From a virus, in IMG/VR virus record IMGVR_UViG_3300035663_000004, positions 23,524-87,523 of that record: DNA of 64,000 nt; one strand, written 5' to 3'. The notes below the pieces were generated by a model. It had not been told where the DNA came from. It worked only from the letters and a program-made list of their open reading frames with translations, and made no database searches. Positions 18,801 to 64,000 of the stretch are shown piece after piece. The translations under genes were made by a program, and so were the position numbers. How positions within the stretch are numbered: position 1 is the stretch's first letter; each line of letters begins with the position of its first letter.

Positions 18801-21800
18801 AGGACAACAGCGTGGGTCAGAGCAACAGACCTTGATGCAAATACCGAATTAAACAATGGAGTTTTGGTTTACATTAGTCGCGGGACAGCAAATGGAGGCA
18901 AATACTTTAGGCTCGCAACGTCAACAGAACCGCCATTAACCATAACCACAAGCGCTTTAAGCTTTAGCGAAACCCTTGGCGCTGGCGTGACGGACGGCGA
19001 CAAGGATGATATAACGGTATCAAATTCAGGCGCAAACTGGAATATTAGAAACGATAGTGTTACGACTCCAAAAATCCTAAACGGAACAATCCTGTTTGAA
19101 GACATTGGCCAAAACAGCGCATCGCCCGGACAGGTTATCAAGTGGAACGGGACAGCTTGGGCGGCGGCGGCCGACAATACAGGCGGATCGGGTTCGACTG
19201 ATTTAAGCTGGACGGGCGCTTCTTCGCCTTATACGCTTAATAGTTCTTCTGGCACGGATGTGGATTTCGCGCAAGGCGGCGGCATAACGCTTTCAACAAG
19301 CGGGGCAACCTTGACTATTGCGGCTACGGATCAGTCCACGACAAACGAATTACAGACACTTTCTACGGCTACAAATACGGTAACGCTAAGCAATAGCGGC
19401 GGCAGTTTTACGATTGCAGGCGGCGGCATAAACGCTGCTTCAACATCGGGTTCTACTATTACAATAACCGGAACAGAGGTGGATGGCTCAACGACAAATG
19501 AGATACAAGACCTTTCGCTTTCAGGCCAAACGCTTTCTTTGAGCAGCGACGCTACAACGGTGACGCTTCCGGTTATCGCGGTATCGGCTGGAACTGGAAT
19601 ATCCACAAGTTCTTCCGGCGGCACGGTGACGGTGACTAATTCGGCGCCCGACCAAACAGTAGGAATAACCGGAACCGGAATAACAGTAGTTTCTAATTAC
19701 CCAAACTTTACTCTTACGGCGGCCGATCAGTCAGCCTCAAACGAAGTGCTAACAATTTCCGATGGCACAAACACCGAGGCTCTGGGCGGTCAAACATTAA
19801 CAGTTGCAGGCGGTGGTATCAATACGGCATCCTATAATGCTACAACCAATACGCTTACGATTAGCGGCACCGAGAATGACGGATCAACCTCAAACGAAGG
19901 TATTTTAGGTGTAGGCGCTGGATCGGGAACAACCGCTACAATTACAACAAACACAACAACCGGGAATGCTGTAACTATCGCGGGCGGTGGTATTGTGGCT
20001 ATTACAAAAACAACAGGTACGAACGGCGGCACTATTACTATTACCGGCACCGAGGCGGATGGCTCAACTACGAATGAATTGCAAACGCTTTCCACGGCAA
20101 CAAATACCGTTACACTCAGTAACAGCGGCGGAAGTTTTACAATCTCTGGCGCTGGCATTAATACGGCATCTACTTCCGGCTCAACTATAACTATAACAGG
20201 AACCGAGAACGACGGCTCAACTACAAATGAACTTCAGACGTTAAGTACGGCGACAAACACCGTTACGCTTTCTAATTCAGGCGGCAGCTTCACAATAGCA
20301 GGTGGTGGTATCAATACAGTATCCACAAGCGGGTCAACTATTACTGTTACTGGAACTGAAAACGACGGCTCAACCACAAACGAACTGCAAACAATCGCCA
20401 ACACATCCGACGCAACCAGTCATACGGTGACGCTGTCTAATTCGGGCGGGTCGGTGCAGTTGATTCAAGGCGCTGGTATTGATCTTACAACAGGCGGGAA
20501 CAGCGGCGCGGGAACGGTTACGATTGCGGCCACAAATAGCGGCACGGTTACATCGGTAGGCATCACCGCACCGGCCGCCGGCATAACCGTAAGCAATAGC
20601 CCTATCACGTCGAGCGGGAATATTACACTTGCGCTTGCGGATGATTTAGCGGCGGTAGAGGGATTAACGAGTATAGGTGTTGCTGTTAGAACCAATAATG
20701 TGCCGCCAACATGGACAACAAGGTCTTTAACGGTAGCTAATCCTATTTCTATACAAAACGCTACGGGCGCAAGCGATAATCCGTTTATATATTTAAACAA
20801 TGGAGATTACGGCGATATAAGCATTGCAAACTCTAATTTGCCCCTCGGGCTTCGTGGCGATGTTTGGACGATTGATGCCAACGTAGTAGATTCAACAAAC
20901 GTCGGCAACAATACGTTGAGCGTTGACGATATTAACGGCGGGTGGGGCGTTCAAACCGGGTCTGTATTGAAATGGAACGGGACAAACTGGCGTCCGGGAA
21001 CAGACGAAACAGGCGGCGGCGGCGGCGGCGTGACCGACGGCGACAAAGGCGACATAACGGTATCCGCTTCCGGCGCTACGTGGACGATTGATAACACCGT
21101 TGTGAATTACGCAAAAATCCAAAACATATCCAACACAAACCGCATTTTAGGCCGGGCAACGGCCGGGGCTGGATCAGTCGAAGAGATAACAGTTGGTGGC
21201 GATTTGACCCAAAGCGGGTCAAATTTTACGGTTGCTAACGACGCCATCACTTTTGCGAAAATGCAGAACAGCGCAGCCGCCGGGCTTTCGGTAGTTGGGC
21301 GAAGCGCAAACAGCGCCGGGGATTTCGCCGAAATAAACGCGGGCACAGACGGCTTTGTGTTGCGCAGGTCGGGTACTACTTTGGGCTTTGGGACGGTGGC
21401 GACGGCGGGGATTGCGGACGCGGCGGTGACTTACGCAAAAATCCAAAACGTAGCAGGTAACAGCGTGTTGGCTCGTACTGCCAGCGGATCGGGCACCCTT
21501 AGCGAGGTGGCGCTTTCGGCTTCTAATTTGTTAGGTCGCGGTAGTACGGGTAATGTGAGCGCGATTACGTTGGGTAGTAATTTGTCTATGTCGGGCACAG
21601 CCCTTAACACGACCGGGCATCCAACAATCACGGGAACGCCAACGACAAACGCGATACCGAAATGGACATCAAGTTCGGCGCTGGGTTCGACGATTGTCCA
21701 AGAGTCAATTTCTGGCGCGGACACGATCATTCAGATCGTTGGCCGGGACGCTTTGCGGTTGCCGCTGGGGACTACGGCGGAGCGGCCGGGAACGCCTACT

Positions 21801-22700
21801 ATTGGTATGACGCGCTATAATACTACTAATGGGGCGTTTGAGTATTATGACGCGGACGCGTGGGAAACGCCGCTGATTTCGGCTACGGGTACGGGACTTG
21901 GTACGGCGGGAAATGTGTTTTTTGCGGATGCGAATGGGCGGGCAAGCGGATCAACAAACCTTTTTTGGGACGCGACTAATAGCAGGCTGGGTGTTGGGAC
22001 AAGTTCGCCGCAAAGTCAGTTTCACTTTGTAACGAACGTTTCAGGCGACCCATCAAACTTCGTTGTAGAGCGATACACAGCAAACGCAAACATTATCCAG
22101 CGCCGCGCGAACGGAACTATTGCGTCGCCAACAGCCTGCCTTAATGGAGATGTATTGGGCGCAAACGCTTTTCGTGGCCATAACGGGACGGCGTTCGCAT
22201 CCCTTTCATCTGTAGTCATGCTTGCTGTTGCTACGGAAAACTGGACAACCTCTGCAAATGGCGCGAGGTTTACAATTAACACGATTCCTAACGGGGCAAC
22301 TTCAGGAAGTGCACGATTTACAATTAACCACAACGGCAACGTAAATATTGGTAGCGGCACAAGTCCTGAAAACAGGTTGCAAATTGAAGGCACCCTCGGT
22401 CGCAACGCGCCCGTATCAACTGACGCCACAGCATACGTCATGACAAATGACGTATCTACCACGTGGCTAATTTGTGACGAAACAGCAACAACAACGATCA
22501 CCCTTCCGGCGGCATCAAGTTGGAGCGGCCGCGAACTCACAATCAAAAATATCACCGCTTTTGCGGTGAACTCAAACGCGTCTAACGTTTTGCCTATTGG
22601 CAGCAATACGGCGGGAACGGCGATACTTTCAGCAACGGCTGGATCGTGGGCGCTGCTGGTATCAAATGGCACGAACTGGGTTATAATGCAACGCGGATAA
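15843..22700 (+). CDS. giant Thr/Ser/Gly-rich fibre/adhesin-like protein with Sec signal peptide (probably an A/B hybrid across the junction)
   Basis: MNQKFFLSALFVFSCGIAGA|Q; repeated DGDK.DITVS and TNE(I/L)Q modules; tail-fibre-like ATTANITLSGTQTIDGV..RVLVKNQ..SQNGLY domain; C-terminal TLPAAS..GRELTIKN..LVSNGTNW. Confidence 0.85.
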   Translation: MNQKFFLSALFVFSCGIAGAQGIVKGSGIIYSDSIPTHSVDTLKEAEIALDVRTGNYYQWSRDSVKWVFSGFRVEIKPGACSAPTYIPGRNQSYFVSDTCGTFYFYNDTLWRQVKGTIADGDKGDITVSGNGLNWNIDAGTIGATELASTSVAPGTYSNATVTVDADGRITNAVNGPTGARGIYDGSGTTGDSTVVASIKKEIQFRSDSTDASFLVDFTPNDLYGTNAAVRPDSLNFLFFNLTGSSRLVIKSDGISAITNTANPSLRLTGNPAIYSADYSPFTDRELPDYAAVKKIVVDSVQVITVTNDTAYLSRSGGIIPLKKYAQVIDTFSRLNDTLFISLSNDNAPAVSAIIDGSSTNEIQDLSLSGQTLSLSNDPTTVTLPVIGVSGGTGITTSSSGGTVTVTNAAPDQTVSISGSGITTVTGTYPVFTVTSTENDGSTSNEGSLTVGAGIATTSVISSNTSGSTNVTIEAGSNITLSESGNTITIASTAAGVTDGDKDDITVSGSGANWNIRNDSVTSPKILDGTIALADMGANSVDSTKVGDKTLSLSDLNGAWGVQNGFVLKWNGSNWRPGADNTGADGNGIYGGDGDIPTGTDATLPLNSFFRFEWPSGNTAFIMDDFGDTVYLADPSLASSVLVSASKVGLRSTGNIELWGGTGGAKLRMLEPTGSGTNYTEIQVGAQSTDITYTLPTTTGSNGQYLQFTTGGQLQWSTVAAGVTDGDKDDITVSGSGANWNIRNDSVTSPKILDGTIALVDMGANSVDSTKIGDKTVSLSDLNGAWGANAGSVLKWDGNNWRPGTDNNTDAQTLSINSTTVGSSERFAVSISSGNTVNFDVPQGTVTSVGITQPAAGITVTNSPVTTSGNISLALANDLGAVEGLTTNGIAVRTGDNTWTTRSIAGAADPSSTALPTINDFNGVNGNPTISISTSTSTTKLTALVATTANITLSGTQTIDGVALSADNRVLVKNQNTASQNGLYVVRTTAWVRATDLDANTELNNGVLVYISRGTANGGKYFRLATSTEPPLTITTSALSFSETLGAGVTDGDKDDITVSNSGANWNIRNDSVTTPKILNGTILFEDIGQNSASPGQVIKWNGTAWAAAADNTGGSGSTDLSWTGASSPYTLNSSSGTDVDFAQGGGITLSTSGATLTIAATDQSTTNELQTLSTATNTVTLSNSGGSFTIAGGGINAASTSGSTITITGTEVDGSTTNEIQDLSLSGQTLSLSSDATTVTLPVIAVSAGTGISTSSSGGTVTVTNSAPDQTVGITGTGITVVSNYPNFTLTAADQSASNEVLTISDGTNTEALGGQTLTVAGGGINTASYNATTNTLTISGTENDGSTSNEGILGVGAGSGTTATITTNTTTGNAVTIAGGGIVAITKTTGTNGGTITITGTEADGSTTNELQTLSTATNTVTLSNSGGSFTISGAGINTASTSGSTITITGTENDGSTTNELQTLSTATNTVTLSNSGGSFTIAGGGINTVSTSGSTITVTGTENDGSTTNELQTIANTSDATSHTVTLSNSGGSVQLIQGAGIDLTTGGNSGAGTVTIAATNSGTVTSVGITAPAAGITVSNSPITSSGNITLALADDLAAVEGLTSIGVAVRTNNVPPTWTTRSLTVANPISIQNATGASDNPFIYLNNGDYGDISIANSNLPLGLRGDVWTIDANVVDSTNVGNNTLSVDDINGGWGVQTGSVLKWNGTNWRPGTDETGGGGGGVTDGDKGDITVSASGATWTIDNTVVNYAKIQNISNTNRILGRATAGAGSVEEITVGGDLTQSGSNFTVANDAITFAKMQNSAAAGLSVVGRSANSAGDFAEINAGTDGFVLRRSGTTLGFGTVATAGIADAAVTYAKIQNVAGNSVLARTASGSGTLSEVALSASNLLGRGSTGNVSAITLGSNLSMSGTALNTTGHPTITGTPTTNAIPKWTSSSALGSTIVQESISGADTIIQIVGRDALRLPLGTTAERPGTPTIGMTRYNTTNGAFEYYDADAWETPLISATGTGLGTAGNVFFADANGRASGSTNLFWDATNSRLGVGTSSPQSQFHFVTNVSGDPSNFVVERYTANANIIQRRANGTIASPTACLNGDVLGANAFRGHNGTAFASLSSVVMLAVATENWTTSANGARFTINTIPNGATSGSARFTINHNGNVNIGSGTSPENRLQIEGTLGRNAPVSTDATAYVMTNDVSTTWLICDETATTTITLPAASSWSGRELTIKNITAFAVNSNASNVLPIGSNTAGTAILSATAGSWALLVSNGTNWVIMQRG
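21021..21537 (+). repeat. direct repeat, left copy
   Basis: 517 bp matching 63484-64000 with 11 mismatches; identical from 21411 onward. Confidence 0.97.
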
Positions 22701-22715
22701 AACAAACATTAAAAT

Positions 22716-23348
22716 ATGAAACACATCCTTTTCCTTCTCCTTTTCCCGGCTGCCTTGTTGGCGCAAGATCAACCGGACACAACCGCCGTCACCTATGAAA
22801 ACCGGGGCGGCATCTTTTACACCGTCACGAAAACAACGTTTCAATCCGGGCGGATCGTGACCGAAGAAACGCCGCTTGGCGCGGACACAGCAGGCGTGGT
22901 AAACGCCATTATCGGGCCGGTATTCACAGCCACAACCGACGCCGCAAACAAGGCTATACAGGTGGCACGGCTTAACCGGGTGCGGCAACAGGTGGTGGCG
23001 GCCAACGCGGCGCTCAACGGGCTTGTTGGACAGGATTATTTTAGCGTGGTACAGAACGCCGTTGGCCAGGAATTTTTGCCGGATTCATTACAAAGTATCC
23101 CGGCTACTATGCGCGTTGACGGCGGCTCTCCCATCACCGCATCAATCCGGCGAAACGCCGCCGGGCGCTTGGTATTTAGGCAGGGAACGCAGAACTTTAC
23201 GCTGGATATCGTTAGCCGTAATTGGATACGCTTGCGGCGCTATCAGGGTACGGAAACGCTGGCGACAGACGCCGTGATTGTTGATCTGTTCAAAGAAACT
23301 GAAGGGCGCTGGATTTCTCTTGATCTTAAATATAATCTGCGAAAATAA
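22716..23348 (+). CDS. secreted hypothetical protein (Sec signal peptide)
   Basis: MKHILFLLLFPAALLA|Q. Confidence 0.75.
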   Translation: MKHILFLLLFPAALLAQDQPDTTAVTYENRGGIFYTVTKTTFQSGRIVTEETPLGADTAGVVNAIIGPVFTATTDAANKAIQVARLNRVRQQVVAANAALNGLVGQDYFSVVQNAVGQEFLPDSLQSIPATMRVDGGSPITASIRRNAAGRLVFRQGTQNFTLDIVSRNWIRLRRYQGTETLATDAVIVDLFKETEGRWISLDLKYNLRK

Positions 23349-24466
23349 TGGCGAACAAAAAAATTTCCGAACTTGAACCCGGCCAACAGGTAGTTGCGGA
23401 CACGCAGTTACCCGGTTCACTGGGCGCGCAGACGTTCAAGTACACGGCTGACCAACTGGCTGCCTACGTTCAATCTAAGGACACGGCGGGCGATATTGAC
23501 GGGCCGCTGACCGGTGCCGAAGTAGTCGGCATTCGCGGGCGCTCGGTATCTGCGACGGAGCCAACGAACGGGCAGATATTGCAATGGAACGGTACGGCAT
23601 GGATCCCGGTCGCTGCGCCTGCCGCTGCGTTCACGCCGGTGGTATACGAATATAGCAACCCCGTTACCAACGAACTGCTTACAATCCCGACCGGCGCAAC
23701 GCTCATAGATATTATTTGCATCGGCGCTGGCGCTGGCGGCGGTTCCGGGCGCCGGGGCGCTGCGGGGACGGTTCGCTGTGGCGGAGGCGGTGGCGGTTCC
23801 GGTACTTTTTCTACCATCACGGTACGCGCGGGCGATATTGACGGGCCGCTAAAAGTTACGGTCGGCGCTGGAGGGAGCGGTGGTACAGCCCGTACAGTGG
23901 ACAGTACAGACGGCGCGAACGGTAGCCCTGGCACGTCTTCGCAGGTTACGTCGAACACGAACGCGATATTGTGTTTTGCGCTCCGAGGCGGAGCGGGAAT
24001 AGGGGGTACCACATCAAGTGGCCCTGGCGGTGCTGCTGGTACGTCTGGCGACTTTCAAGGCAGCGCCGGCAATTCGGCGTCAACAAGCGGCGGAGCGGGG
24101 CAGGACGCAGGCGCTGCTTCGTCGAGAGGCCCGTCGGGTGGCGGCGCTGGTGGCGGTATTACATCCGGCAACGCCGCATCGGACGGTAGCAGCGGGCAGT
24201 CGGTGGTTCACGGGCAAATCTTGGTCGTGAACCGGGGCACGGTCGCAAACCCAAACGCGTCCGGGGGGTATTCGCCGTTACAGGGGCAAACAACTGGCGG
24301 CGGCGGCGGCGGCGGTGGAGCGTCCAGCCTAACCGGCGCTGGAGGACTTGGCGGTAACGGCGTACGCGGCGGCGGTGGCGGTGGTGGTGGTGCGAGTGTG
24401 AACGGAAACAACTCCGGCGCGGGCGGCAACGGCGGCAATGGTTACGTGCGTATAATCTTTTTGTAA
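23348..24466 (+). CDS. glycine-rich virion fibre/structural protein
   Basis: MANKKISEL N-terminus; GQILQWNGTAW; IGAGAGGGSG...GGNGGNGYVRI Gly-rich domain. Confidence 0.8.
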   Translation: MANKKISELEPGQQVVADTQLPGSLGAQTFKYTADQLAAYVQSKDTAGDIDGPLTGAEVVGIRGRSVSATEPTNGQILQWNGTAWIPVAAPAAAFTPVVYEYSNPVTNELLTIPTGATLIDIICIGAGAGGGSGRRGAAGTVRCGGGGGGSGTFSTITVRAGDIDGPLKVTVGAGGSGGTARTVDSTDGANGSPGTSSQVTSNTNAILCFALRGGAGIGGTTSSGPGGAAGTSGDFQGSAGNSASTSGGAGQDAGAASSRGPSGGGAGGGITSGNAASDGSSGQSVVHGQILVVNRGTVANPNASGGYSPLQGQTTGGGGGGGGASSLTGAGGLGGNGVRGGGGGGGGASVNGNNSGAGGNGGNGYVRIIFL

Positions 24467-24467
24467 T

Positions 24468-24590
24468 ATGAACATGAAAAAAATTATCCGGGCATTTTGG
24501 GCGGCGGTGTTCTGTGCAGTAATACTGCCCACCGTCGCGCTGGCAGCCGTCACGATGAAAGCAGCGTCCGGCATGGACGCAGACGTATAA
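24468..24590 (+). CDS. 40-aa hydrophobic peptide
   Basis: MNMKKIIRAFWAAVFCAVILPTVALAAVTMKAASGMDADV; stop overlaps the next ATG. Confidence 0.45.
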   Translation: MNMKKIIRAFWAAVFCAVILPTVALAAVTMKAASGMDADV

Positions 24591-24796
24591 TGGACGTAAC
24601 ATCCGAACTTGCAGACATTATCGGGCCGCGCCGGGCGGGCGAAGCAATAGAAGCGCTATGCATTATTGCGGAAAACCTGCGCGGAGATCACCCGCACGCA
24701 CGCATGGTGCTGGTGTTCGACGGCGTCAGCGCGCCACAATGGGGTAAGGCGATTGACCGGACGCGCATTGAAGATGAGGAGGCGAAACCGGGCTAA
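24590..24796 (+). CDS. hypothetical protein
   Basis: Start MDVTSELADII coupled to the previous stop. Confidence 0.5.
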   Translation: MDVTSELADIIGPRRAGEAIEALCIIAENLRGDHPHARMVLVFDGVSAPQWGKAIDRTRIEDEEAKPG

Positions 24797-24919
24797 TCGT
24801 GCCAGACCCGGCTAATTGCGGCGAATCCGCCCTAATTAAGTTTTGCCGGGAAATTGAAAAAAATACCGTAACTTCGCAGCGCGAAACACACAAACCAACG
24901 CTAACGAAAAAACAATAAT

Positions 24920-25123
24920 ATGTTAACTGAAATTATCAAAAAAAACTGGCTTACTACCGCAATCGGCGTGCTGCTGATCGGCGGCGCAATCGGTGACGCT
25001 GCCGTGTGCATCGTGAACGGCGGCGGGCTATTCGAGTGCGTGCAGGCGGCGTGGGTAGAAATCCTGGCTGCCGTCGGGTTCATTTCCGCTAAGGACGCCG
25101 CGCCGGAAATTCCGGGGAAATAA
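24920..25123 (+). CDS. holin-like two-TM protein
   Basis: KNWLTTAIG...GFISAKDA pattern. Confidence 0.6.
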   Translation: MLTEIIKKNWLTTAIGVLLIGGAIGDAAVCIVNGGGLFECVQAAWVEILAAVGFISAKDAAPEIPGK

Positions 25124-25156
25124 CCCCCAAACTTGTAACAATCAAAACAAATATAC

Positions 25157-26581
25157 ATGCCCGCATCATATCTTCATGGGGTAGAAACCATTGAAATCCA
25201 AAAAGGCGCGCGCCCGGTGCAAGTCGTGAAATCGGCCGTTATCGGTCTGGTCGGCATCGCTCCGAAAGGCACGCCCAATTCGCTTACCCTGGTGCTGAAT
25301 GCGCAGGAAGCCGCGACGAAGTTCGGCAGCGAACTGCCGGGGTTTTCAATTCCGCAGGCCCTGTCCGCAATCTATGCACAGGGTGCGGGAACGGTTCTGG
25401 TAGTGAACGTTTTCGATCCGGCGACCATGACGACCGCCGTAACAAACGAAACGAAAACAATTACGAACGGCAAGGCGAAAACCACGAATGCCCCAACAAA
25501 CACGGTGGTCGTGACGAACAACGCAGGCACAACGACCTACGTCGCTGGCACGGACTACTCGATTGACGACTTCGGAAACCTGACGGTACTGAACTTCACC
25601 TCCATTGCCGAGAGTAGCGCAATTAAGTTCGCCTATTCGCACCTGAACGCATCCGCGATCACGCCGTCAGTAATTATCGGCAGCGTGAACGGTTCCGGCG
25701 TTCGCACCGGGTTCAAGTCCCTTGCGCTGGCTTACTCGACGTTCGGATACACCCCGAAGGTGCTTATTGCGCCGAACTACTCGCAGGAATCCACCGGAGC
25801 CGTTGCTGCTGAAATGATTGCCCAGGCCGAAGCGCTGAAGGCGGTCGCAATTATTGACACGCCGAACAACACGACGGTGGCAACGGCACTCACAGGCCGC
25901 GGGCCGTCGGGTACGCTGGCAGGCTGGAAAACCAGCAGCAAGCGCGCCGTATTGGCATACCCTAACGTGAAGGTGTACGACGCCGCTACTGACGCCGTGC
26001 AGGTTCGCCCGTATTCCGGGTACCTCGCTGGTGTTATCGCCGCAACCGACCTGAATGAGGGTTACCATATTAGCCCGTCGAATCACGAAATTCAGGGCGT
26101 AGTCGGGCCGGAGCGTACGATCACGGCTGCAATTAACGACGCATCCACGGAGGCCAACGCGCTGAACGAAGTCGGCATCGTGACGCAGTTCAACTCGTTT
26201 GGCACCGGCCTGCGCGTCTGGGGCAACCGCTCCGCATCGTGGCCTACCAACACAGCGCCGGATAACTTCATCCCGGTTCGCCGGACGGCTGATATCCTGC
26301 ACGAATCCGTAGAATACGCGATGCTGCCGTTCATTGATAAGCCGCTGAATCAGGCTACCATTGACGCGATCCGCGAATCCGTGAACGCGTTCATCCGTAC
26401 GCTGATTCAGCGGGGCGCGCTGATTGACGGGAAATGTATCTACAACAAGGACAAGAACCCGGCAACCGAACTGGCACTGGGACACGTCACGTTCGATATC
26501 GAGTTCCTGCCGCCGACGCCCGCCGAACGGATCACGTTCGAGAGCTTCATTGATATTAACCTTTTCCGCTCACTCGCATAA
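25157..26581 (+). CDS. contractile tail sheath protein (P2 FI-like)
   Basis: YLHGVETIE..AVIGLVG; SPSN; LNEVGI; G.RVWGNR; FIPVRRT; P.PAERITF. Confidence 0.95.
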   Translation: MPASYLHGVETIEIQKGARPVQVVKSAVIGLVGIAPKGTPNSLTLVLNAQEAATKFGSELPGFSIPQALSAIYAQGAGTVLVVNVFDPATMTTAVTNETKTITNGKAKTTNAPTNTVVVTNNAGTTTYVAGTDYSIDDFGNLTVLNFTSIAESSAIKFAYSHLNASAITPSVIIGSVNGSGVRTGFKSLALAYSTFGYTPKVLIAPNYSQESTGAVAAEMIAQAEALKAVAIIDTPNNTTVATALTGRGPSGTLAGWKTSSKRAVLAYPNVKVYDAATDAVQVRPYSGYLAGVIAATDLNEGYHISPSNHEIQGVVGPERTITAAINDASTEANALNEVGIVTQFNSFGTGLRVWGNRSASWPTNTAPDNFIPVRRTADILHESVEYAMLPFIDKPLNQATIDAIRESVNAFIRTLIQRGALIDGKCIYNKDKNPATELALGHVTFDIEFLPPTPAERITFESFIDINLFRSLA

Positions 26582-26594
26582 TTAACAGAAAAAA

Positions 26595-27113
26595 ATGAGT
26601 ATTCAAGTTAACCGCCTTACCAACGCTAACGTGTACGTTGACGGCGCAAACATGATCGGGCGGGCGGAAGAGGTTACCCTGCCGAGTATCACGCACAAGA
26701 TGGTCGAGCACAAGGCGCTCGGTATGATCGGGCTGACTGAATTTTTCGCCGGGATCGACAAGATGGAGGCGAAAATTAAGTGGAACTCGTTCTACCCTGA
26801 CGCGATGAAAAAGGCCGCCAACCCGGTAACGTCTGTGAAGTTGCAGGTACGATCCAGCCTGGAGGTGTACACCGCCGAAGGCCGAATTGAGCAGCAGCCG
26901 GTCGTGTGTTTCCTGACATGCCAATACAAGGGGTTCCCTATGGGCAATTTCAAGCAGCACGACAACGTCGAACTGGAAAGCAACCTTTCCGTGTATTACT
27001 GCCGTCTGGAAATCAATGGCGAAGAAATCACGGAAATTGACGTGCTGGCCAATATCTACAAGGTGGCGGGCGAGGACATTCTCGCGCAATACCGCAACAA
27101 CCTCGGAATCTAA
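26595..27113 (+). CDS. major tail tube protein (P2 FII-like)
   Basis: NANVYVDG..IG.AEEVTLP; EIDVLANIYKV.G.D. Confidence 0.93.
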   Translation: MSIQVNRLTNANVYVDGANMIGRAEEVTLPSITHKMVEHKALGMIGLTEFFAGIDKMEAKIKWNSFYPDAMKKAANPVTSVKLQVRSSLEVYTAEGRIEQQPVVCFLTCQYKGFPMGNFKQHDNVELESNLSVYYCRLEINGEEITEIDVLANIYKVAGEDILAQYRNNLGI

Positions 27114-27215
27114 TTGGAGGCCGGGGCGGCGACGAGGAAAAAAAGCCGAAAAGCCCGGCGCGTGCATAACGTGCCGGGCTTAACTACGGATATTACACAT
27201 ACCAACACACACACT

Positions 27216-27467
27216 ATGACAGAAATCACACTACCGTCCGGGGCGACGGCAACGATCGAGCCGGGGAAAGGTCGGCACGTTCGACAGGCGCAGAAAATGA
27301 GTGAGGGCGACAATTCCATGTATCTGAACTGCATGATGGCGCAACTTGTAACGGTGAACGGTGCGCGCCTGGTTCCTGAGGACTTCGACGAAATGCCGGC
27401 CGGTGACTACTTTGAGTTGCTGGCGAAATTTTCGGAGCAAAATTTTTCGTCAGCCCAAAGCAAATGA
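27216..27467 (+). CDS. tail assembly chaperone (GpE-like)
   Basis: Between tube and tape measure genes; ED.DEM...DY; start MTEITLPSG. Confidence 0.8.
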   Translation: MTEITLPSGATATIEPGKGRHVRQAQKMSEGDNSMYLNCMMAQLVTVNGARLVPEDFDEMPAGDYFELLAKFSEQNFSSAQSK

Positions 27468-27589
27468 TGTTTCTCGCGCATTTTTCCGGCTGGTCGTACA
27501 GCGATATAATGGAAATGCCGAGCGATGAGTTGTTTTTTTGGGCTGTCGAAGCCGAAAAATTGCACCGCGAAATCAATAGAACAGAATAA
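27464..27589 (+). CDS. GpE'-like chaperone extension, probably via -1 frameshift
   Basis: MMFLAHFSGWSYSDIMEMPSDELFFWAVEA in the -1 frame, open from AATTTTT at 27441. Confidence 0.75.
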   Translation: MMFLAHFSGWSYSDIMEMPSDELFFWAVEAEKLHREINRTE

Positions 27590-27609
27590 TACCACACACA
27601 CCCGCACCA

Positions 27610-29646
27610 ATGCAAAGGGTACTTGAAGTTGCCGTAATACTTTCCGCCGTTGACCGTATGACCCGCGTGGTTAATACGGCTACCGCGAACGTTGTGGCGA
27701 AACTTCAGCACGTGGAAACGCGTGCGCAGCGAATATCGAAGCAGTCGTTCGCGATGGGGCGGGATATGGGCGCAATGGGCATTGCTGCCGGGGCCGCGCT
27801 GGCTGTTCCGATCAAGAAGGCCGCCGAGTTCGAGACGGGTATGGCGAATATACGCAAGGTCGTGGAGGGGTTATCCGACCCGAAAGCGCTCGCTTCATTC
27901 GGCGCGGAAATCCGAAACCTTGCGCGCGAAATACCAATACCAATAGACCAACTTCAGGAACTTGTTGCGGCGGGCGGTCGCATGGGAATACCGCGTGACC
28001 AACTGATAGCGTACACGCGTGAAGTCTCGAAAATGGCGACGGCATTCGACGCCGCACCGGGGGAGATCGGCGAACAGATGGGAAAGTTAGCGACGGTGTA
28101 TAATATTCCGATACCGCAGATCGGGAAATTAGGCGATGCGATTAATTACCTGGACGACAACGCAATCGCGAAGGGTACGGATATTATAGACGTTATGCGG
28201 CGCGTCGGCGGTACGGCGCAACAGGTGGGCCTGGGCGCTAATAACGTCGCAGCGCTGGCGTCCACGTTCCTGACGCTGGGTTCGTCGGCGGAGGTATCTG
28301 CGACGGCATCCAACGCGCTGATCCGCGAACTTGCAATAGCGGAGCAGCAGCCGAAGCGTTTCCAAACCGGGCTTCGCGCGCTGGGTATATCCGCGTCCGA
28401 ATTGCAGAAAAATATGTCTATTGACCCGCAAAATACTATTTTGGGGGTACTCGACAAATTGAACGCGCTGCCGCAGGAGCAGCGCATCGGGGTTACTACC
28501 CAATTATTCGGCAAGGAATACGGCGATGACGTCGCGCGGTTGTCGTCTGGCATCGGCGAATACCGTCGGCAACTCGGACTATTGAACGACCCGAAATTAG
28601 GCGGTTCTATGCAGCGCGAATTTGCCCTGCGACAACAGACGGCCAACGCTCAAATGCAGATATTCCGCAACAACGTGCAGAGCGTATCCATTGCGTTTGG
28701 TTCGGCGTTGTTACCGCACCTTAACAAGGTTATGCAGGCGCTTACGCCGATTATTATTAAGTTCGGCGCGTGGATTGACCGGAATCAAAAACTTGCGGGC
28801 GGTATTGGCATGGCTATTGCGGCGTTCGCGGCATTCAGCCTGGCAACGTCCGGCGTTATGTACATTGTCGGCGGCGTTGCGAAAGCGATAGAGTTCGGTT
28901 CTATGGTTATGGGGCCGCTGACGAAGGGGCTGGGGTTCGTAGTTAAGGCGTTCAATATATTACGACTTGCTGTTCTGGCTAACCCGGTTATCGCAATCAT
29001 AACCGGTATCGCCGTGGCGGCATTCATAATCTATAAGAACTGGGACAAGATCGGGCCGTGGCTGGCGAAGTTGTGGGAGAACGTGAAAAAAATATTTTGG
29101 AAATTCTGGGAATGGTTGAAAAACTTTTTTCTGAACTATCACCCGTACGGGCTGATTATCAAGCACTGGGGGAAAATAATGGAGATCGGAAAAATGTTCT
29201 ACAACGCCGGGGTGAACATAATTAAGTCACTGTGGAACGGTATCAAGTCGCTGGCTATGAAGCCGGTTGAAGCGATCCGGGACGTGGTGACGAAAATGCG
29301 CGACTACCTGCCGTTTTCGCCCGCGAAGGTGGGGCCGTTCCGCGACCTGCACAAGGTGCGAATCGTGGAAACAATCGCGCAGGCAATCGTACCGCGTCCG
29401 CTTACAATGGCGATGGGTACGGTCGCCCGCGCTGCCGCCGACGTGCTGAATCCGGTCGGGCCGTCACTTGCGCCCGCTGCATCCGGCGGCGGTGTTACGA
29501 TTAATTTCCAGCCGAACATTACGTGGACGGGCGGTGTGACAGAACAATCGAAAACAGACCTGCTGGCAATATTCCGGCAATACGAGGGCGAACTGGTTAA
29601 GATGGTGGAATTGGCGATGGAAAAGAAAAACAGAACGCGATATTAA
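27610..29646 (+). CDS. tail tape measure protein (TP901 family)
   Basis: FETGMANIRKVV; LGDAINYLDDN; LFGKEY; ANPV..II; Trp-repeat region. Confidence 0.93.
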   Translation: MQRVLEVAVILSAVDRMTRVVNTATANVVAKLQHVETRAQRISKQSFAMGRDMGAMGIAAGAALAVPIKKAAEFETGMANIRKVVEGLSDPKALASFGAEIRNLAREIPIPIDQLQELVAAGGRMGIPRDQLIAYTREVSKMATAFDAAPGEIGEQMGKLATVYNIPIPQIGKLGDAINYLDDNAIAKGTDIIDVMRRVGGTAQQVGLGANNVAALASTFLTLGSSAEVSATASNALIRELAIAEQQPKRFQTGLRALGISASELQKNMSIDPQNTILGVLDKLNALPQEQRIGVTTQLFGKEYGDDVARLSSGIGEYRRQLGLLNDPKLGGSMQREFALRQQTANAQMQIFRNNVQSVSIAFGSALLPHLNKVMQALTPIIIKFGAWIDRNQKLAGGIGMAIAAFAAFSLATSGVMYIVGGVAKAIEFGSMVMGPLTKGLGFVVKAFNILRLAVLANPVIAIITGIAVAAFIIYKNWDKIGPWLAKLWENVKKIFWKFWEWLKNFFLNYHPYGLIIKHWGKIMEIGKMFYNAGVNIIKSLWNGIKSLAMKPVEAIRDVVTKMRDYLPFSPAKVGPFRDLHKVRIVETIAQAIVPRPLTMAMGTVARAAADVLNPVGPSLAPAASGGGVTINFQPNITWTGGVTEQSKTDLLAIFRQYEGELVKMVELAMEKKNRTRY

Positions 29647-29647
29647 T

Positions 29648-29932
29648 ATGTTATACCCGGATATTGACCACGCTAACACAAAGTTCCAGGCGCTCGACAC
29701 GCTGCCTGCAATGGTGCAACAGGTACTAATCGCTGAACGCCGCGTATTCATGACGGAGATGTACCGCGATGGTGTGCGGTTTTCCGGTACGCTGATCGCG
29801 AGGCCAAAAGACTGGAACGACGCGCGCCGCATTGCATACGAGCGCGGGCTGGGCGAAACGGTGGAAGGGTGCATTGAGGATATTATTCGGGGTGTTTGCC
29901 CGCAAAAAAAACTTACACTAAGTGTAAATTAA
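29648..29932 (+). CDS. hypothetical protein inserted in the tail operon
   Basis: 94-aa ORF between tape measure and GpU. Confidence 0.55.
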   Translation: MLYPDIDHANTKFQALDTLPAMVQQVLIAERRVFMTEMYRDGVRFSGTLIARPKDWNDARRIAYERGLGETVEGCIEDIIRGVCPQKKLTLSVN

Positions 29933-29938
29933 AAAGAA

Positions 29939-30796
29939 ATGTACCAACTCGGCGATATACAATTTGAGGGGCTGCGGGGCTTGGACTCGCTGAGCAAGAC
30001 GCGTGAAGCCGTCTATGCAGAACTTCCGCTAATGTCCGGGAAACCGCGACTTCAGCGCACGGGTACGGCATTGCAGACCGTTTCGGTATCTGTATCATTG
30101 CACGCCGCATTCACTGATCCAGCTGCAGATATTGCAGCGCTGGACGCGTATCGCGAAGCAGGCGAAGTGCTGCCGCTGATCACCGGCGAGGGCGAGGTGG
30201 TCGGGGACTTCGTGATAATTTCCATTGAAGAAACCGTCACGCAGACGACGCCGACCGGCCGCACAATCAGCGCGCAGGTGACTATGTCGCTGAAAGAATA
30301 CAACGACCCGAACAAGTCGGTAACGCTGGCACAGGCGGCACAGTCTGCAGCGTTCGCCGTCGGGGCCGACAAGGTCGTGCCTGTTCGCCTGGTACGCCCT
30401 CCGGTTACGGAAATGTCCGTCACTTCGCAGCAGGTGGAGGCCGGTAACGCCGCATCGCGTGACAGTATCGCGACCCTGCGAAAAGCGCCGTTGAACACGC
30501 CGCAGCAGGCGTCCCTGCTGGTGCGCGCAAAAAAGGTTCTGGAGGCTGCCGAAGCCGCATACAAGTCGGCGAAAGACGCTGTATCTGCATCCGCTAATCT
30601 GGCTGCGAAAGCGCCGCAATTATCCGCACAACTTGACGGCGTCTTGGCAGTGGTCACTACGCTGGCTGCGCAGATCGCATCGGGTAACGTCGCCAACGCG
30701 CTGACGGCTGCCGATGCACTCGAAGCCGCACTGCCTGGACTGGCTGACGCCGTTCGCCCGCTGAATGCAATACTAATGACCCGGCAACCGCAATAG
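29939..30796 (+). CDS. P2 GpU-like tail protein with Ala-rich extension
   Basis: QLGDIQF; KPRLQRTG; LPLITGEG..VG.FVI; LKEY. Confidence 0.88.
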   Translation: MYQLGDIQFEGLRGLDSLSKTREAVYAELPLMSGKPRLQRTGTALQTVSVSVSLHAAFTDPAADIAALDAYREAGEVLPLITGEGEVVGDFVIISIEETVTQTTPTGRTISAQVTMSLKEYNDPNKSVTLAQAAQSAAFAVGADKVVPVRLVRPPVTEMSVTSQQVEAGNAASRDSIATLRKAPLNTPQQASLLVRAKKVLEAAEAAYKSAKDAVSASANLAAKAPQLSAQLDGVLAVVTTLAAQIASGNVANALTAADALEAALPGLADAVRPLNAILMTRQPQ

Positions 30797-30798
30797 AT

Positions 30799-31020
30799 AT
30801 GCCTTACACCGAATACATCACGAACGAGGGCGACCGCCTGGATATGATAGCGTACAAGGCGTACGGCGACCCGTTCGCCTGGGCTGACGTATTGCAGGCT
30901 AATTCGGCGCTGCCTATTCAGGCTGAATATCCGGCTGGCATCCGCGTGATGGTTCCGATATTGGAGCAGGCCGCTGCAACGCAGCCCGCTGCTAACCTGT
31001 TACCGCCTTGGAAGCGTTGA
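30799..31020 (+). CDS. tail protein X (LysM-like)
   Basis: GDRLDMIAYKAYG..AN..YPAG..V..P..LPPWK. Confidence 0.9.
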   Translation: MPYTEYITNEGDRLDMIAYKAYGDPFAWADVLQANSALPIQAEYPAGIRVMVPILEQAAATQPAANLLPPWKR

Positions 31021-36478: not shown

Positions 36479-37351
36479 ATGGCAAATCTGACTGAATCAC
36501 CGGTGTACGAAGCCGGTATATATCAATTAGAAACGACCGACCCGGTATTGGGCGGTTCTTCCGGCATTGCTAACCTTCAGGGCAAGCAACTCGCCAACCG
36601 GACGGCGTGGCTGAAGCAAAAAATTGACAACTTAGGCTTCGGTACAACAGGCGTACCTGTGTACGCTGGCAATCTAAACAGCCTGCTGGATACCGGCTGG
36701 TGGTACGCCACGACGGCAACAACCAACAAGCCGACGGGCGCAAGCGAGGGGTTCGTCCAGGTGGTCGAATACGTCACGCTTGGGTACTCTTATCAAGTGT
36801 ATCACTCGATCACCGTTGACCGAATCTGGACGCGCCGGATTACGGACGGGCCAACGTTCGGGGCGTGGTCGGAAATCGGGCGCGCTGCCGACCTGGCTAC
36901 GCTGAACGATCAACTGATCGGGAGCGTGGCGGCGTTCGCAATGAATACGCCGCCGACGGGCTGGTTCAAGTGCAATGGCGCTGCGGTATCACGCTCGCTG
37001 TACGCCGGGCTGTTCGCGAAGATCGGCACGACGTTCGGCGTCGGAAACGGAAGCACGACGTTCAATCTGCCAGACTTGCGCGGTGAGTTCGTACGGGGCT
37101 GGGACGACGGGCGCGGACTTGACGTTGGGCGCGTGTTTGGTTCGGCACAGGGCTACGCGACCGAAGCGCACACGCACTTTCTTCGTATGCAGACGCTCGG
37201 AGGAATTAACAACAACGGGAGCAGTCCGTATGCAACGACCGTAGCGAATAGCAACGATAGCACAACCACGATGACGCAGGCGCAGGTCGGCGGCGAAGGG
37301 GAAACGAGACCGCGAAACATTGCCCTGCTATACGCAATCAAATGGCAATAA
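36479..37351 (+). CDS. tail fibre protein with tail-collar domain
   Basis: QLANRT.WLK; PTGW.KCNG.AVSR..Y..LF..IGT.FG.G.GSTTFNLPDLRGEF.RGWD; ETRPRNIAL. Confidence 0.93.
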   Translation: MANLTESPVYEAGIYQLETTDPVLGGSSGIANLQGKQLANRTAWLKQKIDNLGFGTTGVPVYAGNLNSLLDTGWWYATTATTNKPTGASEGFVQVVEYVTLGYSYQVYHSITVDRIWTRRITDGPTFGAWSEIGRAADLATLNDQLIGSVAAFAMNTPPTGWFKCNGAAVSRSLYAGLFAKIGTTFGVGNGSTTFNLPDLRGEFVRGWDDGRGLDVGRVFGSAQGYATEAHTHFLRMQTLGGINNNGSSPYATTVANSNDSTTTMTQAQVGGEGETRPRNIALLYAIKWQ

Positions 37352-37366
37352 ACAATCATTGATAAT

Positions 37367-37795
37367 ATGAACACACAACACACACACGAACCCGTGCCCG
37401 TCTATTGTTACGACGACACGGGCAGGTACACGTCATGGGAATACGCCGACCCGAATCCGCTGGAGCCGGGCAAATACCTATTGCCGGTAAACGCTACGCT
37501 GACGCCGCCGCCTGACTGGAGCAAGGGCGAAGTAGCGCGCTGGGACGGCGAACGCTGGGCGGTGGAGCCTGACGATACAGAGGTTCAGCGCCATGCAGCG
37601 TTTCAGCGATCAAGGCGCAACTACCTGTTGGCCGCATCGGACTGGACGCAATTACCTGACGCGCCACTGACGGCTGATGAGGCGCAGCGATGGCGCGAAT
37701 ACCGACACGCGCTGCGTACAATTACGACAGACCCGGCATGGCCTTACGTTGCGTTTCCTGATCCGCCGGAAAAGGAGCCAATAATACAGGCTTAG
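37367..37795 (+). CDS. tail fibre assembly chaperone
   Basis: RNYLLAASDWTQLPDAPL...W..YR.ALR. Confidence 0.88.
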   Translation: MNTQHTHEPVPVYCYDDTGRYTSWEYADPNPLEPGKYLLPVNATLTPPPDWSKGEVARWDGERWAVEPDDTEVQRHAAFQRSRRNYLLAASDWTQLPDAPLTADEAQRWREYRHALRTITTDPAWPYVAFPDPPEKEPIIQA

Positions 37796-45949: not shown

Positions 45950-46756
45950 ATGGAACAGGAACAAATCAATTACAACGTTAAAATGGATATGCCTTATATG
46001 ATTTCCATGTCAGGCGGTCGCACTTCTGGGATGATGGCGAAAATAATTTGCGACAATATTCCTGAAGATCAAAGGATAGTTTGCTTTGCAAATACCGGCA
46101 AAGAGCATGAAGAAACGCTTTTTTTTGTGCAAAACATTGAAAATAACTTTGGAATTAAAGTGCATTGGCTGGAATACGACGACACGCCCGAAGGCTTCAG
46201 AGTTGTTGATTATGAAACAGCAAGCCGAAACGGCGAACCTTACGCCAAACTTGTAAAAAGGAAAAAATATCTTCCGAATGCCGTTACCCGATACTGTACA
46301 ACAGAGTTAAAAATTAGGCCTATAAAAAAATTTATGCAATCTCTTGGATTTTCCGAGTGGTATAATGCCATTGGCATTCGATACGATGAGCCGAGAAGAT
46401 ACAACCGGCTTGCAAACGCTTTCTCAAAAGAGCCTTATGAATCTATTGCCCCGCTTTATGACATGCGCATAACAAAGCCGATGGTTTTAAATTTTTGGGC
46501 CAAGCAGTCTTTTGACTTGAATATTCCGAATTATTTAGGGAATTGCGATATGTGTTTTTTAAAAAGTCGGGCTAAATTGAAAGAAATAATTAAAAAGGAG
46601 CCGAATCGGGTAAGATGGTGGGTTGAGCAAGAAAATGCGACTGGTGCAACGTTTAGGAACGGCTTGTCTTATGAGCGGCTTGTATATATGGTTAAAACGG
46701 CACCAGAGCTATTTAATTCAGATTTAGAAATTGAATGTTTTTGCACAACAGATTAA
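45950..46756 (+). CDS. PAPS-reductase-family (PP-loop) protein
   Basis: SMSGGRTS; FANTGKE; R.CT.ELKI; GIR.DE..R; GNCDMCFLK. Confidence 0.88.
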   Translation: MEQEQINYNVKMDMPYMISMSGGRTSGMMAKIICDNIPEDQRIVCFANTGKEHEETLFFVQNIENNFGIKVHWLEYDDTPEGFRVVDYETASRNGEPYAKLVKRKKYLPNAVTRYCTTELKIRPIKKFMQSLGFSEWYNAIGIRYDEPRRYNRLANAFSKEPYESIAPLYDMRITKPMVLNFWAKQSFDLNIPNYLGNCDMCFLKSRAKLKEIIKKEPNRVRWWVEQENATGATFRNGLSYERLVYMVKTAPELFNSDLEIECFCTTD

Positions 46757-46770: not shown

Positions 46771-47304
46771 ATGATACTCGGAATAACCGGCAAAGCCGGA
46801 CACGGAAAAAATACGGTCGCCAATATTTTGCGCGAAATTTGCCCGCAGATGGACTGGCAGATCGTGGCGTACGCCGATAAGTTGAAAAAGGTATACGAAA
46901 TAATCACGGGCGAACAAGTCCAGGACACGCCCGAATGGAAGGCGAAAATTGTGGAGCCGTGGGGCATTACCAGACGGCAGATGTTTCAACGAATCGGCAC
47001 GGAAGCCCTGCGCAATAACTTACACCAGGACGTTTGGGTGCGGGCGCTGTTCGCCGGACTGGATCCGGAGCGCAATTACATTATTACAGACGTCAGGTTC
47101 CCGAACGAAGCGAGCGCAATCCGAGCGGGCGGAGGTAAGGTTATCCGCGTGGTTCGGCACGGGTACGACAACGGCACGCCGAATCACGCAAGCGAGACGG
47201 CGCTGGACGATTGGTACTTCGATACGATACACAACGGCCCGCACTCGCTGAACTTTGTGCGCGAACAGGTCGAATTATTGGCGTTACATAATGATTGGTT
47301 ATGA
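46771..47304 (+). CDS. deoxynucleoside monophosphate kinase
   Basis: GITGKAGHGK; R...Q.IGTE..R; ITDVRFPNE; HASE. Confidence 0.92.
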   Translation: MILGITGKAGHGKNTVANILREICPQMDWQIVAYADKLKKVYEIITGEQVQDTPEWKAKIVEPWGITRRQMFQRIGTEALRNNLHQDVWVRALFAGLDPERNYIITDVRFPNEASAIRAGGGKVIRVVRHGYDNGTPNHASETALDDWYFDTIHNGPHSLNFVREQVELLALHNDWL

Positions 47305-56608: not shown

Positions 56609-56631
56609 CCTGCACACACATACAGAAAAAC

Positions 56632-60607: not shown

Positions 60608-60610
60608 TCC

Positions 60611-60964
60611 ATGCCGTCCAACTTCGATACCATGCAGGCAGGCGTATTCGAGCAGGCGAAAAACCTGTTCGGATACGCCGCTGCGTGGACGTCGGTGGAT
60701 GGCACGGCCAACTGGACGGGAAAGGTATTGTTCAATAATCCGACGGCGAATTATTCACCAGGTGGAACTTTTCAGTACGATCCCTACCGGTACGAAATGG
60801 AGTACAAGGACGGCGACTTTCCGGGATTGATCGAACGCGTGGAGGCGCGCATGGCACCGGAAACCGTCACGATTGACGGAAAAGAATATCACGTCCGGGC
60901 GGTAAGCGCGGACTTCGACGGCAAGACGTACCGGGCTACATTGCAGCCGGTGGAGGATATATAG
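60611..60964 (+). CDS. head-tail joining protein (gpFII-like)
   Basis: Position; VTIDG..Y.V....DG. Confidence 0.65.
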   Translation: MPSNFDTMQAGVFEQAKNLFGYAAAWTSVDGTANWTGKVLFNNPTANYSPGGTFQYDPYRYEMEYKDGDFPGLIERVEARMAPETVTIDGKEYHVRAVSADFDGKTYRATLQPVEDI

Positions 60965-61001
60965 GCGGGCTATCAAATAGCCGCCACATAAACACAACGC
61001 A

Positions 61002-61859: not shown

Positions 61860-61860
61860 T

Positions 61861-62403: not shown

Positions 62404-62406
62404 CAA

Positions 62407-62910
62407 ATGGCAAAATTTCTTAAAATCGGTACAACCGGCCTAGCAACTGAAGAGGCCGCAATTAACGTAAGCGCCGGCGCTGGCGATGCAAACAAGATTA
62501 TTGAAACCAACGGTTCGGGTAAACTGGACGCTACCTTCCTGCCAGCCGGTGTTGGCAATGATTCAAAATCCATGACCACGGGCGAAGCGCTGAGCGCCGG
62601 AAATCTGGTGTATATCAGCGGTACGGGCACGGTGCTGAAGGCAGACGCTAACGCCGTCGCAAAAGCCGCCGTAGGGTACGTCACCGCGTCCGCCGCAAGC
62701 GGTGCATCGGTGAGTGTATTTTTCGAGGGCACGATCACGGGGCTTACCAGTTTGACGCCGGGCGCGACGTACTTCCTGTCTGACACGGCAACTGGCGCTG
62801 TCTCGCTCACAATCCCGACCGCTGCCGGGGATATTGTCCAGGTGGTGGGCTACGCCGTATCTGCAACCGAACTCACATTCGAGCCGCAAGCGCCAATTGT
62901 GCGCGCGTAA
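62407..62910 (+). CDS. cement-like decoration protein
   Basis: EALSAG.LV; KADA....A.GYV; LTPGATYFLS; Q.VG.A.SAT. Confidence 0.7.
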   Translation: MAKFLKIGTTGLATEEAAINVSAGAGDANKIIETNGSGKLDATFLPAGVGNDSKSMTTGEALSAGNLVYISGTGTVLKADANAVAKAAVGYVTASAASGASVSVFFEGTITGLTSLTPGATYFLSDTATGAVSLTIPTAAGDIVQVVGYAVSATELTFEPQAPIVRA

Positions 62911-62923
62911 AAAAAAATAAAAA

Positions 62924-63139
62924 ATGCCTAACGTTAAACCGCTAAAGGTAGGCAGTACGGGTTATGTAACGGAGTTTCAAACGAACGACACAATAGACCC
63001 CGCACTGGTGCTAAAGGCGCTGCCGTCATACGTTGACGATGCGGCTGCAATAACAGGCGGGTTGTCCGTTGGCGACTTCTATGTAGTTGCGGCGGGCAAC
63101 GACGCAATACCGGCCGGAATTGTAAAAAAAATACTATGA
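62924..63139 (+). CDS. small protein with one LPxY..D..A...GL..G..Y module
   Basis: LPSYVDDAAAITGGLSVGDFY...PAGIVKKI, homologous to the repeats of 14599..15846. Confidence 0.75.
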   Translation: MPNVKPLKVGSTGYVTEFQTNDTIDPALVLKALPSYVDDAAAITGGLSVGDFYVVAAGNDAIPAGIVKKIL

Positions 63140-64000
63140 TAAACAAATATTTATTTTCTTTATTTATTTTCATTTTTCCGGCTGCCGCATTTTCGCAGAT
63201 CGTGAAGACGGCCGCTATACCTTACACAACCGGGACGCCAACGCACACGCCGTCGGCGTCCGGTTCTGCCTGGGCGATTGATAATTCAACCCTTGACTTG
63301 TGGGTGTATTATGGCAGCGCGTGGAACCTTGCCGGGGAGCGCATACAAACCATATCCGGGTGCGCCGCACCTGCCTACACGCCGGGCACGGGGCAATCGC
63401 TGTTTGTTGTGAACGGCTGTGATTCGCTGTATTATTACCGTTCGGGCGCGTGGGTGCGGATTAACGCTGGCGGCGGTGGCGGTGGCGGCGGCGTGACCGA
63501 CGGCGACAAGGGCGACATAACGGTATCCGCTTCCGGCGCTACGTGGACGATCGATAACACCGTTGTGAATTACGCAAAAATCCAAAACGTATCCAACACA
63601 AACCGCATTTTAGGCCGGGCAACGGCCGGGGCTGGATCGGTAGAAGAGATAACAGTAGGTGGCGATTTGACCCAAAGCGGGTCAAATTTTACGGTTGCTA
63701 ACGACGCCATAACTTTCGCGAAAATGCAGAACAGTGCAGCCGCCGGGCTTTCGGTAGTTGGGCGAAGCGCAAACAGCGCCGGGGATTTCGCCGAAATAAA
63801 CGCGGGTACAGACGGCTTTGTGTTGCGCAGGTCGGGTACTACTTTGGGCTTTGGGACGGTGGCGACGGCGGGTATTGCGGACGCGGCGGTGACTTACGCA
63901 AAAATCCAAAACGTAGCAGGTAACAGCGTGTTGGCTCGTACTGCCAGCGGATCGGGCACCCTTAGCGAGGTGGCGCTTTCGGCTTCTAATTTGTTAGGTC
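63136..64000 (+). CDS. phage B signal-peptide fibre/adhesin-like protein, 5' part (runs off the window; not in ORF track)
   Basis: MINKYLFSLFIFIFPAAAFS|QIVK...GCAAPAYTPGTGQSLFVVNGCDSLYYY...G8-VTDGDKGDITVS; ATGA overlap with 62924..63139. Confidence 0.9.
   Translation, partial: MINKYLFSLFIFIFPAAAFSQIVKTAAIPYTTGTPTHTPSASGSAWAIDNSTLDLWVYYGSAWNLAGERIQTISGCAAPAYTPGTGQSLFVVNGCDSLYYYRSGAWVRINAGGGGGGGGVTDGDKGDITVSASGATWTIDNTVVNYAKIQNVSNTNRILGRATAGAGSVEEITVGGDLTQSGSNFTVANDAITFAKMQNSAAAGLSVVGRSANSAGDFAEINAGTDGFVLRRSGTTLGFGTVATAGIADAAVTYAKIQNVAGNSVLARTASGSGTLSEVALSASNLLG
63484..64000 (+). repeat. direct repeat, right copy (truncated by window end)
   Basis: Matches 21021-21537 at offset 42,463. Confidence 0.97.

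Follow-up and report, generated by a model that had tools for sequence, protein, structure and literature searches.

The 87.5-kb viral contig analysed here is very probably (roughly 93%) a chimera that an assembler made from two separate phages, designated A and B. A sequence-only reading had described it as a complete phage lying within the fibre gene of a different phage; that arrangement is an in-silico join of two genomes, and one public sequencing run holds A without B. The same reading had also allowed that the assembler walked through a shared repeat, and this account is borne out by a depth step, by A occurring without B, by B closing without A, and by a contig end at a shared 127-mer. 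The window, i.e., the whole stretch of DNA that was analysed, is 64,000 nucleotides long and comprises bases 23524-87523 of an 87,523-bp IMG/VR record; window base 64000 is the final base of that contig. The features referred to below are as follows (window coordinates).

1-21020, no strand assigned: partial genome of phage A, with another 23.5 kb lying before window position 1; carries early genes, an endolysin gene, genes of GroEL/GroES type and the portion of the fibre gene that is specific to A
15813-22700, + strand: the 2,295-aa ORF as printed; A sequence to 21410, most likely B sequence from 21411
21021-21537, + strand: repeat copy 1, which begins at the poly-Gly linker and has DUF5907-type repeats and A-type SNP letters
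21021-23334, + strand: cassette shared by A and B, made up of the C-terminal ~560 aa of the fibre and nearly the whole 210-aa gene, with patchy ~92-100% identity
21411-21537, + strand: first exact A/B 127-mer, the merge point of two paths in a k=127 de Bruijn graph
21538-64000, + strand: a complete 42,463-bp unit of the P2-like myovirus B (GC content ~56%), printed as a circular permutation
21876-22388, + strand: variable tip block; in native A copies of other samples, unrelated sequence stands in its place
22716-23348, + strand: 210-aa gene with a signal-peptide-like N-terminus, the right part of the cassette; A-type variants and divergence at 23334
63136-64000, + strand: 5' part of the native 675-aa fibre gene of B, cut by the contig end and continued at 21538-22700
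63484-64000, + strand: repeat copy 2, B-type at the SNP sites, ending in the 127 nt (63874-64000) that form the graph vertex visited twice

The direct repeat is 517 bp long, with its two copies (21021-21537 and 63484-64000) offset by 42,463. Letter comparison reproduced the mismatches that had been read from the sequence, 11 in total (21047, 21089, 21126, 21176, 21179, 21194, 21248, 21254, 21272, 21344 and 21410); 10 are synonymous and one is Ile/Val, and the copies are identical across their final 127 nt (21411-21537 and 63874-64000). The flanks diverge upstream of the poly-Gly linker, as had been claimed, with DNA identity dropping to random level to the left of 21021. Neighbouring SNPs within 21021-21410 are all spaced <127 nt, and the next known A/B difference after 21410 is at 21620; 21411-21537 is therefore the earliest 127-mer common to the A and B versions. 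The contig stops exactly on its second arrival at this 127-mer. An end that follows exactly 127 identical nt is a break at a vertex of the assembler's k, which is a mark of a chimera. Because the contig stops at window base 64000, it is the contig end and not biology that truncates repeat copy 2. It had been suggested that the sequence beyond 64000 be inspected for a return to phage A; the contig ends there, inside copy 2, with no return to A in the contig.

SPAdes paths overlap by k where a cycle closes. The source of the protein record is JGI/IMG, and from this source together with the 127-nt tail we infer that k=127 was used for the assembly of this sample. The JGI workflow uses metaSPAdes with k = 33, 55, 77, 99 and 127, the largest being 127 (doi 10.1101/2020.09.30.320929). 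The printed layout resembles that of metaSPAdes repeat chimeras, in which a linear path enters a cycle via a shared k-mer, completes one lap, and stops at the re-visited k-mer. It also resembles de Bruijn end overlaps, in that the contig end repeats an internal stretch, the exact overlap equals k = 127, and node depth is additive. In a circular contig the k-mer overlap usually links one end to the other; here the end overlaps an internal site, a “lollipop” layout that arises because a second genome is attached to the cycle.

Parts of 16501-26500 are present in 24 lake/freshwater runs, many of which hold only ~0.4 of its words. We compared Logan contigs from four runs with window positions 11001-31000; these are assembled contigs built with k=31, which carry one depth figure per contig and break inside the repeat. 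Run X1 contains 0.96 of the words and is probably the source run of the contig, and run X2 comes from a different study than X1. Depths were as follows.

Run X1: A 19-21x; shared stretch 77.9x (single contig, 21048-22926); B 60.7x
Run X2: A 7.5x; shared stretch 26-29x; B 18.7x
Run X3: A 54.7x; B without cover on 25008-31000

Comparing coverage of 1-21 kb with that of 23-63 kb had been proposed as a check, and in the Logan contigs of X1, within 11001-31000, it gave a step from ~19x to ~61x. The depth of the shared stretch approximates the summed depths of A and B in both X1 and X2. A depth change at the junction and a summed depth over the shared stretch, both indicative of a chimera, were thus present in these two runs. 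The B:A depth ratio was ~3.2 in X1, ~2.5 in X2, and 0 in X3; the equal copy number of insert and carrier that is expected of a co-integrate was found in none of the three. A and B were found together in two studies. Each partner also occurs alone, another property of a chimera: A in X3, and the fibres of B and A on contigs of 45,073 bp and 26,907 bp, respectively.

Run X3 reveals the native course of A. Based on a contig covering 19000-21943 at 56.9x, A-unique fibre sequence is joined to the module in this run, which lacks B and carries the window's A-type letters at 10 SNP sites (21047 was not among the rows shown). The A contig continues past 21537 with eight changes at 21620-21673. The record at 56.9x then jumps from 21943 to 22389, and other sequence fills the gap. 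A further X3 contig (15,257 nt, 52x) covers 22401-23334 with 35 changes, after which the match to the window ends. Variant letters at 22977-23204 are the sole letters in X3, and the same letters appear at A's depth elsewhere (19.3x in X1 and 8.3x in X2). In both X1 and X2, contigs depart from the window at 23334 with one common 30-letter sequence; this exit sequence of A is absent from the whole 87.5-kb contig. Joints in X3 at approximately 21010-21030 and 24040-24434 were set aside as repeat noise, as their sides are only 21 letters long and rich in Gly codons.

For phage B, contigs in X1 and X2 join the module at 21015, and the letters that lead into it are identical to window positions 63448-63477. 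These letters belong to the N-terminal part of the B fibre, and at the level of assembled sequence the entry reads as the closure of B. Exact 30-mers of the A right-arm end and the B N-terminal junction had no match in a viral contig set that possibly excludes the contig's own and near-identical records.

The fibre genes give the same picture. Joining 63136-64000 to 21538-22700 yields 2,028 nt encoding 675 aa plus a stop, which confirms the intact reading frame that had been proposed. Three proteins, P0242, P0243 and P0244, are further members of the 90% cluster of the 2,295-aa ORF. P0242 (675 aa), from a 45,073-bp contig (NCBI and JGI), matches the joined frame letter for letter, so that the native B fibre predicted from the window exists on an independent contig. 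P0243 comprises the final 370 aa of P0242, and its contig is also 45,073 bp long. Judged by its proteins and its span, the 45,073-bp contig fits one 42,463-bp B unit plus a 2,610-bp overlap. P0244 (2,303 aa, on the 26,907-bp contig) is the native A fibre; compared with the printed ORF, it has four scattered substitutions to residue 1990, a replaced block at residues 2022-2192, and an identical last 103 aa. The replaced block corresponds to nt 21876-22388, in agreement with the X3 joint from 21943 to 22389.

The 2,295-aa ORF is accordingly an in-silico hybrid. Its earlier description as having an A head and a B tail holds for the printed contig, but native A has a very similar C-terminal part of its own. 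The N-domains of the A and B fibres share 33% identity (E 6e-16), each following a signal-peptide-like start, and the two fibres are homologous over their whole length. The A fibre additionally holds older, diverged internal copies of the first part of the module.

Phage B has the gene set of a P2-like myovirus: the terminase, portal, capsid, sheath, tape measure, J/W/V-type baseplate proteins, collar fibre, and chaperone expected of this type were all found. Its packaging and head genes encode a large terminase, a portal, a protease-capsid fusion, and head decoration and connector proteins. Tail genes include those for the sheath, the tape measure, baseplate proteins, and a collar-type tail fibre with its chaperone; other genes encode RecT, exonuclease VIII, a helicase, SSB, a lysozyme, and a primase. 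PHROG matches for the virion genes of B range from E 1e-244 to 1e-10. The P2-type collar fibre and chaperone lie at 36479-37795, apart from the gene for the 675-aa fibre-like protein that B also encodes together with a 210-aa protein and a 372-aa Gly-rich protein. The B ORFs scanned contain no integrase or invertase family, and RecT and exonuclease VIII were the only recombination proteins found. A complete myovirus gene set between the repeats, with a RecE/RecT-like pair and no integrase, had been read from the sequence, and the gene set and the pair were both recovered. The nearest relatives of the B capsid protein are in Chitinophagaceae genomes (58% and 48% identity).

Phage A is a Bacteroidota-type phage, and the contig's share of it is 44.5 kb. 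It encodes a BT4734-type primase, ThyX, a methylase, and a small integrase-family protein, as well as a 3,142-aa LPD23 polyvalent protein, an endolysin, and GroEL. GC content is ~47% in A (before 20 kb) vs. ~56% in B, rising to ~55-58% after 22 kb. Using megablast against 50,697 phage records, we identified no match to either the A part or the B part. A relative of A, the IMG/VR contig L096, shares 91.5% identity with it across 6.3 kb, from GroEL to the start of the fibre. The L096 fibre (2,060 aa) has the start of the module in common with A but carries a different tip, which resembles the 372-aa Gly-rich protein of B (48-53% aa identity). A large terminase and a portal lie ~0.9 kb downstream of the L096 fibre, and TBLASTN detected no match to either in the 87.5-kb contig. 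Since this relative has a terminase and a portal without counterpart in the contig, A breaks off at the junction, and the contig lacks its genes for packaging and the head. The right-arm 30-mer of A is not present in L096.

The sharing of the cassette between the Bacteroidota-type phage A and the P2-like myovirus B is real. The cassette, ~2.3 kb long and mosaic, begins at the poly-Gly linker within the fibre gene, ends 14 nt short of the stop codon of the 210-aa gene, and is common to two otherwise unrelated phages. The earlier proposal that very different phages share a segment by recent exchange is supported, and the stretch in question can be extended to 23334 to include the 210-aa gene. 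The block at 21876-22388 has a GC3 of 0.44, compared with ~0.6 in its surroundings. The cassette probably stems from recent homologous recombination, likely in a common Bacteroidota host, and the conserved poly-Gly/DUF5907 repeat region may have been the start point of the exchange. By family, the module belongs with DUF5907 (PF19264), which the protein P0002 matches with 45.5 bits against a gathering cut-off of 27. The module has >2,000 homologues; among the 120 listed, many carry PF19264, some with phage tail domains. Against metagenome contigs, P0242 matched only distant DUF5907 relatives (≤81% identity, in short segments). Neither the 210-aa protein nor the full 2,295-aa ORF matched a Pfam or PHROGs family.

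Such sharing is typical of fibre-tip exchange, a well-known phenomenon of which the cassette is one more example, without a new principle. Haggard-Ljungquist and colleagues reportedly described in 1992 (J Bacteriol) how distal parts of tail fibres and their chaperones were swapped horizontally among unrelated phages (P2 H/G, Mu S/U, P1, and lambda stf/tfa). As in those phages, A and B share the C-terminal part of a fibre and the next gene without other DNA similarity, the left boundary of the cassette lies at a domain linker inside a gene, and identity is mosaic. Unlike those phages, the partners here are uncultured freshwater phages of Bacteroidota type, and the protein, a DUF5907-repeat fibre whose N-terminus resembles a signal peptide, lies outside the canonical fibre position of B.

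A second parallel is found in the mosaic adhesive trimer (MAT) fibres of Bdellovibrio bacteriovorus, in which a signal peptide and a conserved N-domain (100-130 aa) precede a long repetitive fibre that ends in swappable C-terminal tips (PMC10769870). The same layout as in the MAT fibres (Caulton et al. 2024) is predicted from sequence for the A and B fibres. Within the B fibre, residues 452-581 match the solved tips of Bd2439 and Bd1334 (8OL4, 8ON4, 8OML) with E ~1e-9. Whereas the MAT fibres are those of Bdellovibrio, the genes here are phage-encoded, and in the comparison with MAT fibres an S74 chaperone domain was not detected in the phage fibres. Modelling of the 675-aa fibre with AlphaFold2 on a 17-row alignment gave a structure of poor quality (mean pLDDT 47).

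The printed contig could alternatively be a true co-integrate, formed by a single crossover of B into the A fibre gene via the cassette, perhaps by B's own RecET-like pair. The layout of the contig agrees with such an event, B encodes RecT and exonuclease VIII, 2.3 kb at 92-100% identity is an ample substrate for homologous recombination, and A and B co-occur in two studies. We nevertheless consider this very unlikely, and the crossover proposed in the sequence-only reading is not supported: the depths of A and B differ approximately threefold with the shared stretch at their sum, A is present at 55x without B in X3, closure of B upon itself is seen in both X1 and X2 as well as on one independent contig, and the printed contig ends precisely at a k=127 vertex with no return to A. 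Furthermore, the scanned B ORFs include no integrase and, judging from general knowledge of phage packaging, an extra 42.5 kb would lie far beyond what the A capsid can package. There is likewise only a slight chance that a minority of intracellular molecules are true A::B co-integrates arising from RecET-type recombination in the cassette during co-infection. If they exist, such molecules would be intermediates of an ongoing exchange in which a myovirus and a phage of non-contractile type trade the fibre tip and the 210-aa gene.

A single large phage genome of at least 87 kb, in which the fibre module is genuinely duplicated, would account for there being one contig, rated 89% complete by CheckV, but its probability is minimal. 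The halves differ in GC content and depth and are found separately in other samples and assemblies, the virion and replication set of B is complete and non-redundant by itself, and in the relative of A a terminase and a portal of its own follow the fibre directly; X3, with A at 55x and B at 0, refutes this reading. It is just as implausible that there is no real sharing, with the repeat as cross-sample or strain consensus noise and the module not native to A: nothing was found in its favour, and it is refuted by the module standing in line with A-unique sequence in X3 (no B; contig 19000-21943, 56.9x) and occurring in P0244 on a separate contig. The older, diverged module copies inside the A fibre also speak against it.

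The assembly chimera most likely formed in the following way. A and B are separate phages of the same lake water, B having a circular map, each with its own copy of the fibre-like gene. In a k=127 graph, the path of A would merge into the cycle of B at 21411-21537. The assembler would then take the approximately threefold more abundant B branch (we infer that this was the branch rule applied), complete one lap of the B circle, and halt when the same 127-mer recurs at 63874-64000. The true continuation of A is absent from the contig: its own version of the tip, the divergence at 23334, and presumably a terminase and a portal as in its relative.

The 87.5-kb IMG/VR/GenBank record, which is rated 89% complete, is on this evidence very probably a two-virus chimera, and a chimeric record would mislead estimates of genome size, taxonomy, host prediction, and “phage-in-phage” claims. 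A diagnostic for other contigs follows from its layout: a contig whose end duplicates one of its internal sites, with an exact overlap as long as the assembler's k, should raise the suspicion of a cycle on a linear path. For the phages themselves, the presence of a near-identical fibre-tip cassette in two unrelated phages of the same lakes suggests that they share a host and have recently exchanged what is likely a receptor-binding part.

In phage B, a 19-bp exact inverted repeat (CGGCCAACAGGTAGTTGCG) has its two arms in genes with tail-related functions:

23380-23398, arm 1, in the 5' end of the 372-aa Gly-rich tail gene
37616-37634, arm 2, within the 142-aa tail-fibre-assembly gene

In one Logan contig each from X1 (the probable source run) and X2 (a run from another study), the reverse complement of 37635-37664 directly abuts the sequence from 23380 onward. 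Inversion of the entire 14.25-kb tail module of phage B would produce two junctions, and this joint corresponds to one of them. Because the 19-bp arms are shorter than the Logan k of 31, simple graph collapse does not account for the joint in X1 and X2. The reciprocal inversion junction did not appear among the Logan contig matches listed, and the phage B ORFs scanned included no invertase.

Outside the shared cassette, phages A and B have further DNA in common, with 68% identity and in opposite orientation:

Contig bases 4-507 and 7063-7314 (before the window begins), phage A side
Window 46010-46519 and 46861-47112, phage B side, in opposite orientation to A

This homology is old and does not belong to the recent cassette; it spans the PAPS-reductase-like gene of phage B (45908-46756) and extends into the beginning of the kinase-like gene that follows.

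Within the phage A fibre, several repeat families (D2, D3, D5 and D7) occur at 16900-20400 with 63-88% identity; among the repeats are older copies (D4) of the shared module's opening part. These internal repeats could serve as seeds for unequal or inter-phage recombination. Elsewhere, at 10538-13434, phage A encodes a GroEL homologue (PHROG 5725, E 1e-55), with small ORFs behind it.

Signal-peptide-like N-termini were identified in three proteins:

15813-15905, phage A fibre-like protein
22716-22780, 210-aa protein
63136-63200, phage B fibre-like protein

In sequence comparison, the phage B fibre matches the tips of Bdellovibrio mosaic adhesive trimer (MAT) fibres; together with the signal-peptide-like N-termini, this match raises the question of whether these three proteins are virion fibres or exported adhesins.

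In L096, the IMG/VR contig of an A-like phage with 91.5% identity to A upstream of the fibre, the fibre (5213-11395) has a C-terminal tip related to the separate 372-aa Gly_rich_2 protein of phage B (48-53% aa identity), so tip domains move between fused and stand-alone forms within this phage group.
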